In this document: positions 845 to 8,576 of the stretch, one piece after another
Layout: each line of letters begins with the position of its first letter
How positions within the stretch are numbered: the first letter of the stretch is position 1
DNA from: an uncultured Nitrososphaerota archaeon
GTDB taxonomy: Archaea; Asgardarchaeota; Njordarchaeia; Njordarchaeales; Njordarchaeaceae
Reading direction: 5' to 3'
DNA: 25,244 bases
Assembly: GCA_964518475.1 (NCBI GenBank)
Contig: CAZFGR010000024.1
Coordinates: 1-25,244, forward strand
Made by a program: the position numbers and the translations under genes
Notes under the pieces: generated by a model
Database searches by the model: none
Seen by the model: the letters and a program-made list of their open reading frames with translations, nothing else
What the model was told of the DNA's origin: nothing

Positions 845-1750
845 ATGTTTCACGGTGTAATTGTTCCCATGATAACTCCGTTTAAGAAGGACTATTCCAT
901 AGATTTTGAGGCTCTTAAATGGTTGACAGAGTTTCTTATGCGAAAAGGCGTTCATGGACTTTTCCCATACTCAACTACTGGGGAGTTCGTGCATCTAAAG
1001 CCGGGGGAAGGTATAAAGATTGTCGAAACAGTTCTAGAGGAAGCCAAGAACTCAGTAAAAATAATCCCTGGGATAAGTTCGAATACTACCTTAGAGTGTA
1101 TAGAACTCGGCAAGAAGATGGAGGACTTAGGAGTCGATGGAGTAATCGCCACACCCCCATTCTTCTTTAAACTTAAGACAAAACACCTTATAGAACACTT
1201 TTCGGGCATAGCGTCTAGATTATCCCTGCCAATTATTGTATATAACATTCCCTCGCTAACTGGTAACCCCATACCTGTCGAGGTTTATGAAAAACTGGCG
1301 AAGGAGCATAGTAATATTGCGGGGGCTAAGATTACTTACGACAGCGTCTCTTATCTAAGAAACTTAATCATAGCATTAAAGGAGGTTAGGAAGGACTTCT
1401 CAATCCTGACCGGTCTTGATGATATGTTCCTCTACACCTTACTAATCGGTGGCGATGGGGGAATAATGGCATGCGCTAACTTTGCTCCTCAGATCCATGT
1501 AGAGCTATACAATGCCTACAGAAATGGAGAGTATGAAAAAGCTATAGGACTCTCGAGAAAATTGGCAAAATTGGCGAGAATATATGATTATGCATCATCA
1601 TTCCCATCAGCAATTAAAACAGCTTTTAAAATCTTGGGGACTCCAGTAAAACCAGTCGTGAGGCCACCATTAACTCCAGAACCCTCGGAAGTAGAAGAAA
1701 AAATAAGAATGATTCTAACGGAGCTTGGGCTCGTGGGAAGCTCATATTAA
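845..1750 (+). CDS. DapA/N-acetylneuraminate lyase family class I aldolase (probably not true DHDPS)
   Basis: GVIVPMITPF, STTGEF, YNIP and Schiff-base Lys in GAKIT. ATG at 845 is preferred (GAGG upstream) over 815. Confidence 0.9.
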   Translation: MFHGVIVPMITPFKKDYSIDFEALKWLTEFLMRKGVHGLFPYSTTGEFVHLKPGEGIKIVETVLEEAKNSVKIIPGISSNTTLECIELGKKMEDLGVDGVIATPPFFFKLKTKHLIEHFSGIASRLSLPIIVYNIPSLTGNPIPVEVYEKLAKEHSNIAGAKITYDSVSYLRNLIIALKEVRKDFSILTGLDDMFLYTLLIGGDGGIMACANFAPQIHVELYNAYRNGEYEKAIGLSRKLAKLARIYDYASSFPSAIKTAFKILGTPVKPVVRPPLTPEPSEVEEKIRMILTELGLVGSSY

Positions 1751-2440
1751 CCTGAAAAAGATATATTGGGGGTACTCTGAGGCTCCTAGATAAGACATGA
1801 CTAAAAGATTTACAATATTCCTCCATTTCTTTTCTTCTAGTATCTCGGGGTATATGCGTAGAACTCCTTCCTCTAAGGAAATTTCATCAATTTCTGTCTC
1901 GGATAAGTAGGGTATTTTCTCACTCGACAACTTTGGCACGAAGCTTTCAGCCACTTTAAAGAGCCTATCTACAATATACCTACGTACTTGAAGGCACTTT
2001 AACCAATCTCCCTTCATCGCTAATACATGAACCTCCGCTCCTTTCTTGGAGAAAGACAACAGTGCCTTAATGTCCAACTCTGACGCTAATATGTAATCAG
2101 AAGCTAAGAAGTGCGGTGGAATAGTTGGCCATTCTCTAATAGCACCTATTATTCTTAAGCCCCTAGTGTTTACTTCTTCTAATATATCATCAATCTTTCT
2201 ATTCCGAAACTCTACTAATTCGAGAGTGTCCGTGACAAGAAATATAGAATCCCTAAAAGAGGAGGCGATGCCCTCAAATCCGTACTTTCTCAGCATCTCT
2301 TTTAACAAGACCTCGGTTTTAGAATAAGATATTAAAGCTCGATAATAATCATTAATAGGTACTCTAATGCTGGGCTCAGAATATTTAGTAGCTAGCTTAT
2401 TGACGGTAATGCGTAATAATTTTTCTAAGAGTTTTCCCAT
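1742..2440 (-). CDS. Hypothetical protein, possible inactive MPN/JAB (MPN-minus) domain
   Basis: 232-aa ORF convergent with the aldolase. GLRIIGAIREWPTIPPHFLASD keeps the JAMM spacing but lacks the His ligands. The ORF is solid; the fold call is an inference. Confidence 0.6.
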   Translation of the reverse strand: MGKLLEKLLRITVNKLATKYSEPSIRVPINDYYRALISYSKTEVLLKEMLRKYGFEGIASSFRDSIFLVTDTLELVEFRNRKIDDILEEVNTRGLRIIGAIREWPTIPPHFLASDYILASELDIKALLSFSKKGAEVHVLAMKGDWLKCLQVRRYIVDRLFKVAESFVPKLSSEKIPYLSETEIDEISLEEGVLRIYPEILEEKKWRNIVNLLVMSYLGASEYPQYIFFRLI

Positions 2441-5747: not shown

Positions 5748-6487
5748 TCTCATATGTTGAACGTGATAGTGTTTGGCATAGAGCTAATCCTTGCACTAAA
5801 TTACTTATAGTGACCACTCTAGTGTTTTCTCCTTGGATATCTGAAAGATTTCTTTTATCCGCCCTGATAATCTTGGCAATTTCATTAATAATGAGTAAGA
5901 GTATGCGAGATCTAACACATATTTATACTGTAATTCTCGTTTTCTCAGTGATTTTTCTACCGCTTAATACGCTCTTGTATTCTAGTCTTATCAAAGAAAA
6001 AACCTATCTTCTAAAGCCTTGGATTACTTTAGAAGGATTACTCCTAGCAGTAATAGCACTAATGAGAATTGTGATCGGTCTCCTAGCTATTGGTCTTTTC
6101 TTCGTCACAACAAGTCCTGAAGAACTAGAGGACTTTTTATTGAGACTGAAATTTCCAGCGTCTTTCATACTTGCTTTAACAGTCTCTACAATGTTCGCGC
6201 CTATGCTTTTAGAAGAGATTACTAGAATAAAGATGGCTCAATCTCTCAGAGGAGCTTTTCGCGGAGGATTCATAAATAGAATCAAGGCTTACGCCCGCGT
6301 CTTAGGGATTCCTTTAATAGTATCTGCTTTAAGGAGAGCGATCAGGTTGGCTGAAGCAATAGAATTATGGGGAGCCCCATCCCCAAATAGAACAGTGTTT
6401 ACTTCTATTAGTTTCAAAAAAGAGGATATGGTATTGATTTCAATGCTTGCTTTTCTAGTGAGTCTCTGCACTCTCGTGCCGTTTTAG
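5729..6487 (+). CDS. ecfT: ECF transporter transmembrane component T (EcfT)
   Basis: DS.WHRANP..K N-terminus, TTSPEEL, AQSLRG and EAIELWG coupling-helix motifs; overlaps the ATPase gene. Confidence 0.92.
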   Translation: MVLPKIISYVERDSVWHRANPCTKLLIVTTLVFSPWISERFLLSALIILAISLIMSKSMRDLTHIYTVILVFSVIFLPLNTLLYSSLIKEKTYLLKPWITLEGLLLAVIALMRIVIGLLAIGLFFVTTSPEELEDFLLRLKFPASFILALTVSTMFAPMLLEEITRIKMAQSLRGAFRGGFINRIKAYARVLGIPLIVSALRRAIRLAEAIELWGAPSPNRTVFTSISFKKEDMVLISMLAFLVSLCTLVPF

Positions 6488-8320
6488 AATTCTTTCTACA
6501 AGCTCATTAAAAGCTAAGAGATTTTCTTTTTCGGCCTCTTGGCGCATCTCATCGATTTTTTCAAGAGATTCGTCAACACCTAAAATAGCTAGAGCTTCTA
6601 TAAGTTTTAGTGTTACTGACCAGTATATTACTGGGTAACCCTTTAGAACCTCCCTTATGTTTTCGAATTCTTGAATGATTTGTTCCAGCAAGTCTCTCCG
6701 GATAGTTTTGAGTCTTATTGTATCCGCTATTTGTGTGAGTGTCCATAGTAGATTGGAATAGTAAAGAGAGAATTCTGTGGGAGAGAGAGTCCATAAGATC
6801 CAGATGTCCTCTCCGATAATTTCTTCTAACATATTGATTATTTCAGGAGACATCTCTCCCCTCCTAGCTAGAATCTCGGCTACAAAGCCGAGGAGTTCGG
6901 ACATCAGAATTGTATACTTAATCATTGGTATTCTCTCGGATAGCTTGTATTTGCCTAGGGCTCTAATCCATTGTATGATCTCTTTCAATTGGTTACTTAG
7001 GTAATCTTTACCAGTAGCTATTGACAAGATCTTTAGTATCTCGAGATATCTAAGATAAGTCTCCACCTTTATCGTTATTGGTATTTTCTCAGATTTATCA
7101 AGACAAGTTCTCCATTTCTTCCAACTCTTTTCAAAAACCTTTAGAATTTCCGACACTTCTTCCAGACTTATACCTTTCTGAAGATGTGATATGGATAAGA
7201 TCGTTACCCAAGCTCTAAGCCAAGACGTTGCATGGTCAAAGCTCTTTTTATCAAAGCTCCTTAAAGTTTCCTGTTGAAGCTCGCCAAGATAGTATAACCA
7301 TTCATCAGATGGTAGCTCGTAACCATATATGAACTTATACATAACCTCGTAACTTTTATTGAGAGTATGAAGTAGGGAACCTTTGGGAAGGATCTCGGCA
7401 TAAATTCTAGCAAGTTCGTTATCTATTGGCGGGAATGTTGCAAGAATATACGCTACAGACTCTTCTAAGTCTCTAGCAATATTTGATTTAATTATTGTCT
7501 TATTTGTGAGTATTAGTTTTGATTTAGTATTATAAGAGGAAATATTGTAGAATTCCGCAAGACTATACTCTAGTAGCATTTGAATAAAAACATCGGATAT
7601 TTCCTTTATGAGGCTCTTTAGTTCATCTGGATTTATAATTTCGGAGGAGCTGCTTTCCATCATTAAGAGTGCTGTTTTAACAAAAATTGTTTTTGCAGCA
7701 TTACTATAGTAGTTTTCGTTAAAGAATGCGAATGTCTTAGCGAGTATGTCCTTATAGTTTAGGTTAACTACATAATCCAATAATGCCTTGAAATCTTGGA
7801 GTGCTGTTTTTTTAAGTTTAATATCTTTGAGAGATATTTTTCGAGTTCTAATTGGTGGTGGTGTTAAGTCGAGTTTGGTTATTTTTCCATGACCAAGTAG
7901 GCCCTTCATCTTACCTATGATTTCTTTGATAAGGTTTATATCCGGTGGCGGAGTTCTTAGATAGCGGTCTATAAGATCCATTACTTCTTTCTTTATGCTT
8001 TCATCGATTTGAAGCTGAATTGGATCAAATCCGAGTCTTTCTATTTCAAGAGCAATTCTTTCAGCAATACTCTCCAGCTCGGGGTCTTCAATATCTGAGA
8101 ATAATGTAAAAATGAGGTTCTCGGTGCTCGCGAAATATAGATGAATACTTTCTGTCTCTACGTGTCGTAATCTGCTATGCACAAGCCCTTCAACAAATGA
8201 GTACATAACAGCACTTATTTGTGCAAAGAAGTTTCGCCCCTCTTTAGTAAGTATGGGAATATATTCCCGCGTAATTATCGGTGTGCCCCCAGAATCCGCT
8301 AGAATATATCCCAGAATCAT
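6455..8320 (-). CDS. Longin-like N-terminal domain fused to a long alpha-helical (solenoid-like) region
   Basis: The first ~125 aa follow the longin pattern (MILGYILADSGGTPIITREY; SAVMYSF; RHVETESIHLYF; LIFTLFSD; helix). The rest is Leu/Ile/Glu-rich amphipathic helices with no enzyme motifs. Confidence 0.65.
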   Translation of the reverse strand: MILGYILADSGGTPIITREYIPILTKEGRNFFAQISAVMYSFVEGLVHSRLRHVETESIHLYFASTENLIFTLFSDIEDPELESIAERIALEIERLGFDPIQLQIDESIKKEVMDLIDRYLRTPPPDINLIKEIIGKMKGLLGHGKITKLDLTPPPIRTRKISLKDIKLKKTALQDFKALLDYVVNLNYKDILAKTFAFFNENYYSNAAKTIFVKTALLMMESSSSEIINPDELKSLIKEISDVFIQMLLEYSLAEFYNISSYNTKSKLILTNKTIIKSNIARDLEESVAYILATFPPIDNELARIYAEILPKGSLLHTLNKSYEVMYKFIYGYELPSDEWLYYLGELQQETLRSFDKKSFDHATSWLRAWVTILSISHLQKGISLEEVSEILKVFEKSWKKWRTCLDKSEKIPITIKVETYLRYLEILKILSIATGKDYLSNQLKEIIQWIRALGKYKLSERIPMIKYTILMSELLGFVAEILARRGEMSPEIINMLEEIIGEDIWILWTLSPTEFSLYYSNLLWTLTQIADTIRLKTIRRDLLEQIIQEFENIREVLKGYPVIYWSVTLKLIEALAILGVDESLEKIDEMRQEAEKENLLAFNELVERILKRHESAETH

Positions 8321-8524
8321 GCTTTTCGACCCAGCTTCGTATTTTATCTTCAGTATTTAAAATCAATTATATTCTCAGTACCTCATTAATGGCTTCTCTT
8401 AAAAAATTATAATTTGGAAGTATTTCATAGTAATCATAATGCTAGTACATTTAACAAAAGGACATTATTCTATAAAAATTCTTCTGTGCCCGACAGAATT
8501 TCAATACGCATCTTGTCCGTATAG

Positions 8525-8557
8525 TCCTAATATATATTGAGCATATAACTATTAGGA
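8525..8557. terminator. Hairpin TCCTAATA-TATAT-loop-ATATA-AC-TATTAGGA downstream of apgM; possible terminator or operator
   Basis: Bulged inverted repeat about 20 nt past the apgM stop codon. Confidence 0.35.
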
Positions 8558-8576
8558 TTCCGTAAACATAGGATAA

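Follow-up and report, generated by a model that had tools for sequence, protein, structure and literature searches.

A longin domain joined to a TPR-like α-solenoid in a protein family of Asgard archaea

Results

P0001 is an intact two-module gene with no named family

The window, meaning the whole 25,244-nucleotide stretch analyzed here, carries on its minus strand an intact open reading frame, P0001, which begins with ATG, ends with the stop codon at 6455–6457 and encodes 621 residues, exactly the extent (6455–8320) given by the original prediction. It is flanked by ECF transporter and phosphoglycerate mutase genes. TATA-like runs lie approximately 25–45 nt ahead of the ATG, and the spacer on the phosphoglycerate mutase side may, as read from the sequence, hold a candidate promoter of P0001’s own. 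Sediment and hydrothermal-vent metagenome runs contain this stretch of DNA, with no RNA run among those listed. The features discussed below, with the evidence for each, are:

6455–8320, minus strand: whole coding sequence of P0001, 621 aa plus stop (ORF list, translation, full-length homologs, model)
8321–8576, minus strand: AT-rich spacer of 256 nt between P0001 and the phosphoglycerate mutase gene (direct sequence reading)
7946–8320, minus strand: longin domain, aa 1–125 (DSSP of the model, Foldseek, VIA, N-terminal profile, Atlas)
7820–7945, minus strand: linker, aa 126–167 (model secondary structure, family alignment and conservation)
6458–7819, minus strand: TPR-like α-solenoid, aa 168–621, about 24 helices (domain model, VIA, Foldseek, Atlas, phmmer)
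6725–6811, minus strand: most conserved segment of the solenoid, aa 504–532, with W510, Y520, Y521, L525 and A532 (conservation count in the family alignment)

AlphaFold2 modeled full-length P0001 from a 43-sequence alignment with a pLDDT of 90.8 and a pTM of 0.90. In sequence searches, hmmscan at E up to 10 returned no Pfam or NCBIfam family for the protein, and the N-terminal 130 residues run separately gave the same outcome. A match to a known metabolic family, named in the original prediction as counter-evidence, was not found, and a metabolic enzyme identity was dropped because no such family matches.

The N-terminal domain is a longin

In a longin fold, helix 1 covers one face of a five-stranded sheet and helices 2–3 the other; unlike Roadblock domains, it has no N-terminal helix. 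DSSP assignment of the P0001 model (strands 2–9 and 14–19, helix 26–45, strands 53–55, 60–65 and 69–75, helices 80–95 and 100–122) gave the order β-β-α-β-β-β-α-α, with strand 1 opening the chain; a Roadblock fold was rejected, since the N-terminal helix is missing. The original prediction had assigned this longin order to nt 7946–8320, equal to aa 1–125, and the model, Foldseek, VIA, the N-terminal profile and Atlas all agree with it; the non-longin N-terminus that would have spoken against the assignment did not appear. Its hallmark segments were likewise located: S-A-x-x-x-S-F at S36–S41–F42, L-I-F at L69-I-F71, and I-x-D-x-x-G-x-P-I-x-x-R-x-Y at L7, D9, G12, P14, I15, R18 and Y20, the last being correct except for its first residue, which is L and not I. 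DENN/folliculin-type and tri-longin architectures were rejected, as the region beyond the longin is all-helical in the model.

Structural comparison did not assign the domain to one longin subfamily. The Foldseek matches included AP-1 sigma3 (9ddt_B, TM by target 0.71, probability 1.00) and many AP sigma/mu and COPI zeta/delta chains with TM by target of 0.6–0.7. VIA aligned 109–132 residues with more than 15 different longin entries (rmsd 2.6–3.7, Z 9.8–13.6), among them AP-3 sigma/mu, synbindin, VAMP7, Sec22, Fuzzy, Mon1-Ccz1 and TRAPPC1. AP/COPI chains scored Z 12.5–13.6, synbindin 12.4, Fuzzy 10.7, Mon1-Ccz1 10.2 and TRAPPC1 9.8; because synbindin, VAMP7 and Sec22 trail the AP chains by no more than about 1.5 Z, VIA singles out no subfamily.

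Sequence-based comparison favored TRAPPC1 and Fuz/Mon1. The N-terminal family profile matched Bet5/TRAPPC1 at E 5e-4, its only significant sequence-profile match in the PDB, and a Robl_LC7 protein at E 0.026, while relatives of P0001 gave weak matches to Fuz_longin_1 (PF19036; 17.9–19.4 bits, below the 26.1 cut-off). In Atlas, the clusters closest to the N-terminus were Asgard proteins labeled “first longin domain of FUZ/MON1/HPS1” (score 0.92), and its structural look-alikes were fused to Arf/Ras GTPases and V4R domains, with a response-regulator fusion among them. PF01217 (Clat_adaptor_s) was absent for P0001 in hmmscan at E up to 10 and from the 25 families listed for 43 members. PF04099 (Sybindin) had no match in the own genome, but it had none in any control genome either and is thus uninformative. 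Within the family the longin is the best conserved portion, with G12 invariant, Y62 nearly so, and S75 and D76 conserved.

A short linker leads into a TPR-like solenoid

The linker holds the end of a PPSI-type motif (aa 124–127), a helix (128–141), the TPPPIRTRK stretch and a short strand (160–162). Both proline-rich stretches that had been pointed out earlier are present, TPPPD at 122–126 and TPPPIRTRK at 153–161, yet only the first (consensus PPSI, aa 124–127) is conserved across the family.

The all-helical C-terminal region that had been claimed is borne out by the roughly 24 helices of the model, and the VIA, Foldseek and Atlas comparisons agree with a TPR-like solenoid. Modeled alone, it reached a pLDDT of 93.3 and a pTM of 0.93. 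The best VIA match was MalT domain III (1hz4; Z 16.1, rmsd 4.8, 335 of 366 residues aligned), followed by APC/C, Rap, AimR, NprR, separase, APPBP2 and LGN at Z 10.7–13.1, although values of 12–16 are common among helical repeat proteins and such matches may reflect a shared arrangement only; VIA itself cautions that repeats often score below about Z 13. Foldseek returned generic TPR/ARM/Apc5 matches, and Atlas TPR/PPR/HEAT look-alikes. At the sequence level, phmmer matched aa 544–614 to a designed PPR protein (E 3e-7); the C-terminal profile found only designed helical proteins among PDB sequences, at E above 0.05, and TPR/SUPR motifs were not recovered (no Pfam TPR family in P0001 at E up to 10). 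The best 50 VIA matches (lowest Z 8.8) and the best 50 Foldseek matches of the solenoid included neither an adaptin nor a COPI large subunit, and hmmscan at E up to 10 gave no match to PF01602 for P0001; a distant relation to these trunks may nevertheless exist.

Many VIA alignments to sigma/mu longin chains run from residue 1 of the model to 508–515, which means that one solenoid helix there occupies the place of a sigma/mu helix. Judging by these alignments and its conservation, the segment aa 504–532 probably packs onto the longin domain.

The family is restricted to a few Asgard lineages

Contig taxonomy, which the original prediction had left to be assigned, was read from cluster names and places the host in Njordarchaeales, an Asgard lineage. 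Among the 1.8 billion proteins of the library searched, about 40 (41) clusters at 50% identity share the whole length of P0001, and the architecture is therefore more than a chance fusion. The closest ortholog is 58% identical, and full-length forms occur only in Njordarchaeales and three other Asgard families. A single-protein scan of genome contigs found no relative; a family-profile search of the host genome counted five full-length paralogs. The P0001 family is an unnamed, lineage-restricted, fast-evolving superfamily. Another protein, P0039, joins the same longin module to a different repeat scaffold (LRR). The genome also encodes about ten Ras/Arf-like GTPases and six Roadblock proteins.

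One paralogous branch, and not the core family, is linked to a GTPase gene

No conserved neighbors were found for P0001, its close orthologs or family members; orthologs lie next to NurA (L014) or ZnuABC (L016). ABC-transporter genes adjoin three superfamily genes: P0001, the C13 paralog of P0001, and P0066, a family member in L016. No GTPase gene was present in the flanks of P0001 or its orthologs, and the contigs bearing core-family genes in the own genome, G011, G019, G029, G143 and G316 carried no Ras-type GTPase. Small GTPase genes are linked to some prokaryotic longin/roadblock platforms, as in mglA-mglB. Asgard longin/roadblock proteins and GTPases are mostly not encoded together (PMC10933270), and the missing adjacency at P0001 is accordingly expected.

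A different picture emerged for the divergent paralog P0073, which matches the P0001 family profile over positions 41–564 (hmmsearch, E 4e-18). A Ras-family, Rab-like GTPase gene (172.8 bits) lies 22 nt downstream, and this order is kept in all five testable same-genus genomes, in which the P0073 orthologs are only 27–52% identical; a Roadblock/LC7 gene then follows in three of the five. For P0073 and its neighbor GTPase, complex prediction gave a median score of 0.41 against 0.00 for the best control, in a range (up to 0.60) where the calibration mark was reached by only 7 of 80 solved complexes as against both passing mismatches; over all scores, 58 of the 80 solved complexes passed, as did 2 of 110 mismatched pairs. 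The runs agreed in at least 91% of contacts and the partner pLDDT was at least 80, and the prediction gave no interface. These models weakly suggest that P0073 might bind its neighbor GTPase.

Discussion

The analysis establishes the reading frame of P0001, both folds, the family and where it occurs, and the linkage of GTPase and Roadblock genes to one paralogous branch; on this basis we asked what P0001 does. Longin/roadblock domains dock GTPases in TRAPP, Mon1-Ccz1, Ragulator and MglB. As the best reading, to which we give about an even chance, P0001 would be a soluble two-module, GTPase-linked scaffold, effector or regulator. A longin of the Asgard Fuz/Mon1/TRAPP-like type, docked on the C-terminal TPR-like solenoid of about 450 residues, would act as the docking platform for one of the cell’s approximately ten Ras-superfamily GTPases; the solenoid would hold a further protein or peptide partner, and the protein would in this way couple the GTPase switch to a target. 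The proposal draws on the longin fold seen in the model and fold searches together with the profile similarity to Bet5/TRAPPC1 and Robl_LC7, on the weak Fuz_longin_1 matches, the Fuz/Mon1-type Atlas clusters and the Arf/Ras-fused look-alikes, on a superhelix of the type that in MalT and RRNPP receptors binds peptides or ligands, and on the roughly ten GTPases and six Roadblock proteins in the genome, the five paralogs and the P0073–GTPase–Roadblock linkage with its weakly favorable complex prediction. Against it, P0001 and its close orthologs have neither conserved neighbors nor a GTPase on the same contig, P0073 shares only profile-level similarity with P0001, its complex prediction is weak and without an interface, and neither catalytic residues nor GTPase contacts can be pointed out. 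Some longins, such as those of SNAREs and AP sigma subunits, serve functions that do not involve GTPases, which argues in the same direction. The GTPase regulator of the original prediction is supported indirectly, through the conserved pairing of a divergent paralog with a Rab-like GTPase gene; orthologs of P0001 itself have no adjacent GTPase.

Two further readings keep the fold assignments and dispense with the GTPase. TPR-like superhelices of MalT and of RRNPP receptors bind peptides or ligands, and the P0001 superhelix could do likewise, with the longin as a dimerization or output module. We regard such a GTPase-independent sensor as unlikely. The extensive superposition on MalT domain III, with RRNPP receptors next, fits it, subject to the commonness of such Z scores among helical repeats, as does the core family’s lack of a GTPase neighborhood. 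Asgard longins fused to two-component signaling domains have been described (bioRxiv 10.1101/2020.10.19.343400), and a response-regulator fusion is among the look-alikes of the N-terminus; P0001, however, lacks an output domain of the DNA-binding, kinase or NTPase type, and the P0073 branch is linked to GTPase and Roadblock genes. Slightly less likely, in our estimate, is a general interaction scaffold or assembly factor, for example in proteostasis or a cell-envelope complex, in which the longin would only cap the solenoid structurally. Likeness to APC/C subunits, proteasome Rpn-type subunits and separase, and the recurrence of the longin module on the LRR scaffold of P0039, would agree with this role, as would the ABC-transporter genes that happen to adjoin three superfamily members; these neighbors are nevertheless of three unrelated types, one pair being convergent, and the longin is better conserved across the family than the rest of the protein (G12 invariant, with Y62, S75 and D76), which speaks for a role of its own.

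The original prediction had also raised a proto-adaptor. In such a protein the longin would correspond to sigma/mu and the solenoid to the large-subunit trunk within one chain, and paralogs would pair into a coat-adaptor-like complex that an Arf-like GTPase recruits. AP sigma/mu and COPI zeta/delta chains do head the Foldseek and VIA lists for the longin, both modules are modeled as a single confident body, the conserved solenoid helix near W510 replaces a sigma/mu helix in many alignments, and there are several paralogs per genome. Yet synbindin, VAMP7 and Sec22 score nearly as well, sequence similarity favors TRAPPC1 and Fuz/Mon1 over Clat_adaptor_s, and the solenoid is of the TPR type (MalT III, RRNPP, APC/C), with no adaptin/COPI trunk among its best 50 VIA matches. 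P0001 lacks an appendage or mu-homology domain and any Pfam adaptor match, and no Arf-like gene lies nearby. The generic longin fold is thus the one piece of positive evidence for the claim, which we consider very improbable. More improbable still is the evolutionary version, that the family is the surviving single-chain longin-plus-solenoid ancestor of the AP/COPI/TSET half-complexes, its longin docked adaptor-like and its paralogs pairing as a GTPase-recruited proto-coat adaptor.

Known systems share parts of this design. The TRAPP core (Bet5/TRAPPC1, Trs23/TRAPPC4 synbindin), Mon1-Ccz1, Fuzzy-Inturned and HPS1-HPS4 have the same longin fold and topology as P0001, but TRAPP and the tri-longin RabGEFs use small single-domain subunits or three longins in a row where P0001 has one longin and a solenoid; to our knowledge, a helical solenoid of 450 aa is not fused to the longin in any of these proteins. 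The longin finds its best structural matches in the AP/COPI sigma, mu N-terminal, zeta-COP and delta-COP domains, which, as the longin of P0001 probably does, lean on an α-solenoid. In AP/COPI, however, the two lie on separate chains with a HEAT-like trunk and appendage domains, whereas P0001 is a single chain and TPR-like. Nearly all of MalT domain III (SUPR) superposes on the P0001 solenoid, and Rap/AimR/NprR reach Z 12–13; compared with these receptors, P0001 has no sequence similarity, no NTPase or HTH, and a longin as partner domain.

The closest setting is that of the Asgard multidomain longin/roadblock proteins, with which P0001 shares its phylum, its longin type and, as the two papers cited next describe generally, an architecture confined to certain lineages and not observed in eukaryotes. 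Longin-GTPase fusions have been reported in Asgard archaea (Tran et al. 2024, PMC10933270), as have 130 Roadblock/longin asCOGs, whose architectures are lineage-specific (Liu et al., bioRxiv 10.1101/2020.10.19.343400). The Asgard longin/roadblock literature searched contains no description of a longin plus TPR-like solenoid chain, and Njordarchaeales lie outside the surveys of Tran and Liu. P0001 adds a new and well-defined domain architecture to a class already known; it does not represent a new kind of system.

Asgard archaea have many longin/roadblock proteins and many small GTPases, and matching regulators to GTPases is hard because their genes are rarely linked (PMC10933270). In the P0001 family, a eukaryote-type longin is built into a single chain with a large interaction scaffold, and its P0073 branch offers a concrete three-gene set for biochemical tests: a longin-solenoid protein, a Rab-like GTPase and a Roadblock protein. 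If the solenoid packing proved adaptin-like, the family would be relevant to how vesicle-coat adaptors arose; if the longin does dock a GTPase, it would show a pre-eukaryotic wiring of GTPase switches to scaffolds.

A conserved Njordarchaeal protein with longin and solenoid modules

The gene under study opens with ATG and reads as one uninterrupted frame of 621 codons:

6455-8320 (-), P0001, longin-solenoid protein of 621 aa

Its 3' end overlaps by 33 nt (6455-6487) the 3' end of a convergent gene for an ECF-transporter T-component (CbiQ), and 256 nt of AT-rich DNA lie between it and the same-strand upstream gene for phosphoglycerate mutase. Translation recovered the longin motif segments quoted in the original prediction, except that the first I is actually L; nt 7946-8320 encode residues 1-125. 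A 232-aa ORF elsewhere in the window, at 1742-2440 (-), has no Pfam match. The source assembly (G000) comprises 2.33 Mb in 121 contigs and is 91% complete, and the DNA runs containing this stretch are sediment and hydrothermal-vent metagenomes.

Searched alone against Pfam, NCBIfam and PDB sequences, P0001 matched no family, apart from one designed protein: residues 544-614 matched a designed pentatricopeptide protein (E 3e-7, single-sequence PDB search), which points to helical-hairpin repeats in this segment. A word-indexed search yielded two relatives (58% and 33% identity), and an exhaustive search of 1.8 billion representatives yielded 41 related clusters, nearly all of 600-635 aa and aligned to P0001 over the full length. 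In the 43-sequence family alignment G12 is invariant, and conservation is otherwise highest at Y62, the S75-D76 motif, residues 124-127 (a PPSI-like motif) and the stretch around W510-A532. Judged from these relatives, P0001 is a real, conserved protein. NCBI members of the closest clusters are assigned to Candidatus Njordarchaeales archaeon, Njordarchaeia archaeon and Njordarchaeum guaymaensis, with one older record under Korarchaeota; on these names the window comes from an Asgard archaeon of the Njordarchaeales. Genome G002, of the same genus, also carries an ortholog. Two full-length homologs from same-order genomes (G008:C11:58-1926 and G007:C15:39129-40982) carry one in-frame TAA each; a pseudogene, a split gene or a misassembly may account for it.

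The N-terminal domain adopts a longin fold

The AlphaFold2 model built from the family alignment (pLDDT 90.8, pTM 0.90) places residues 1-125 in the order beta-beta-alpha-beta-beta-beta-alpha-alpha with no N-terminal helix, which in the model is longin topology; the same order, lacking that helix, excludes a Roadblock fold. In Foldseek against the PDB the top match was AP-1 sigma3 (TM by target 0.71, probability 1.00), with dozens of chains of AP sigma, the AP mu N-terminus, zeta-COP and delta-COP behind it. The independent structure search VIA gave AP-3 sigma (Z 13.6), AP-3 mu (12.7), synbindin (12.4), VAMP7 (12.1) and Sec22 (11.9), then Fuzzy (10.7), Mon1-Ccz1 (10.2) and TRAPPC1 (9.8), values too close together to single out one longin subfamily. 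The anticipated longin fold is thus upheld by the modelled topology and by matches to solved longins in both searches.

A sequence profile built on residues 1-150 reached yeast Bet5/TRAPPC1 (E 5e-4) and a Robl_LC7 protein (E 0.026), and some P0001 relatives gave below-threshold matches to Fuz_longin_1. Closest in the ESM-Atlas are clusters of Asgard proteins (score 0.92, 192 features in common), whose label "first longin domain of FUZ, MON1 and HPS1" is an automatic naming. Look-alikes of the Atlas's own low-confidence model of the N-terminus carry Arf/Ras GTPase domains, V4R domains or response regulators in the same chain.

A TPR-like solenoid follows the longin domain

Modelled by itself, the segment 168-621 forms about 24 helices (pLDDT 93.3, pTM 0.93), bearing out the proposed all-helical repeat region as a TPR-like alpha-solenoid. 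Its first VIA match was MalT domain III (Z 16.1, 335/366 residues, rmsd 4.8), and the next (Z 10.7-13.1) were APC/C TPR subunits, phage and Bacillus Rap/AimR/NprR receptors, separase, APPBP2 and LGN; because Z values of this size are common for helical repeats, as the tool itself warns, we name no specific relative. Foldseek and the Atlas returned generic TPR, PPR, ARM and HEAT look-alikes, and none of the best 50 matches in VIA or in Foldseek was an adaptin or a COPI large subunit. The high pTM of the full-length model suggests that longin and solenoid form one body. Many VIA alignments to sigma/mu chains span model residues 1 to 508-515, and the conserved W510 sits on the helix where these alignments end.

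The fusion is lineage-restricted and has several paralogs

A second copy lies on contig 13 of G000 (24% identity), and the full-length profile A1 recovered three further full-length relatives, giving five in this genome with P0001.

Longer full-length paralogs in G000 (coordinates or contig; length; E value; profile positions)
G000:C5:27891-30074 (-); 727 aa; 8e-32; 1-563
G000:C15:16423-18618 (+); 731 aa; 2e-28; 1-563
P0073, contig C14; 667 aa; 4e-18; 41-564

The C5 and C15 paralogs show longin-plus-helical architecture and run on for about 110 aa at the C-terminus, and the C5 paralog also has a weak Robl_LC7 match. In a quick tree P0001 groups with its relatives P0002-P0004, the contig-13 copy sits in a different clade, and the longer three paralogs fall outside. 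The same profile found the longin part alone in two short G000 proteins. In a 280-aa protein (G000:C1:182160-183002, L035), roughly 110 N-terminal residues with a weak longin-profile match (E 0.015) precede an Arf/Ras domain at aa 114-254; this protein is likely a longin-GTPase fusion such as has been described for Promethearchaeum.

Among 400 genomes of the phylum, full-length matches were confined to the window's own order (families f1-f4) and three other families (f10, f33 and f22); outside these, the match covered only the first 70-140 residues and fell on small proteins, in 49 of 85 genera. This makes the longin module an Asgard-wide type and the fusion a lineage-restricted one. In P0039 (305 aa, Logan contig) the same longin-plus-linker module (P0001 aa 1-187) is joined to leucine-rich repeats (LRR_4, E 7e-27), with no helical solenoid.

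Many Roadblock/longin families have been described in Asgard genomes, often as lineage-specific multidomain proteins unseen in eukaryotes (PMC10933270; bioRxiv 10.1101/2020.10.19.343400), as have longin-GTPase fusions (PMC10933270). Our literature search found no published description of the P0001 family or of a TPR-like solenoid placed after a longin domain.

The gene of a divergent paralog is paired with a Ras-family GTPase gene

Close orthologs and the other family members compared have no common neighbours: P0001 lies beside the ECF transporter and phosphoglycerate mutase genes, others beside NurA and HerA-like genes, a ZnuABC operon and dCTP deaminase, or rubrerythrin. No Ras-type GTPase is encoded on the contigs of core-family genes in G000 or five other genomes, each of which has 8-22 such GTPases. 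A separate Ras-like GTPase gene in G000 (C5:19234-19689, -) adjoins a Roadblock/LC7 gene (C5:19826-20059, -) within C5:19234-20059, an MglA/MglB-like pair.

The divergent paralog P0073 lies 22 nt upstream of P0074, a Ras-family, Rab-like GTPase (172.8 bits); the pair lies at G000:C14:9968-12490 (L026:5969-8524; L027). This order is kept in all five same-genus genomes with downstream DNA present, despite only 27-52% identity among P0073 orthologs. In three of them (L030, L031, L032) the gene after the GTPase encodes a Roadblock/LC7 protein; the third gene in G000 and G002 instead encodes a 213-215-aa protein, with a PF04060 FeS motif in the G000 copy. Complex prediction for P0073 and P0074 gave a median score of 0.41 (best control 0.00). 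Of 80 solved complexes used for calibration, 58 reached the mark, as did 2 of 110 mismatched pairs; with scores up to 0.60 the mark was reached by only 7 of the 80, against both of these mismatches. Runs agreed on at least 91% of contacts with partner pLDDT of at least 80; no interface was reported. This prediction lends weak support to a P0073-P0074 complex.

Functional interpretation

The folds and family of P0001 are solid, and its link to eukaryotic adaptors is unsupported. All that speaks for the proposed proto-adaptor is a longin fold of generic type and a model in which both modules form one body; the TPR-like look of the solenoid, a sequence indicating TRAPP/Fuz-type longins and the absence of Arf linkage tell against it, and we regard it as highly improbable. 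A MalT/RRNPP-like ligand- or peptide-sensing protein unrelated to GTPases would echo the leading solenoid matches, of a strength common among helical repeats, and is unlikely; a general assembly scaffold is a rather poor candidate.

For the superfamily, a GTPase-linked scaffold or regulator is most likely, given the GTPase/Roadblock linkage of P0073, the complex score and the GTPase-related roles that PMC10933270 summarises as established for longin and roadblock domains (TRAPP, Mon1-Ccz1, Ragulator, MglB). The suggested GTPase regulator gains indirect support from the gene linkage of the divergent paralog and none from the contigs of P0001 and its core family; by homology, the chances that P0001 itself has such a role are about even. 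The P0073-GTPase-Roadblock set is itself directly testable.
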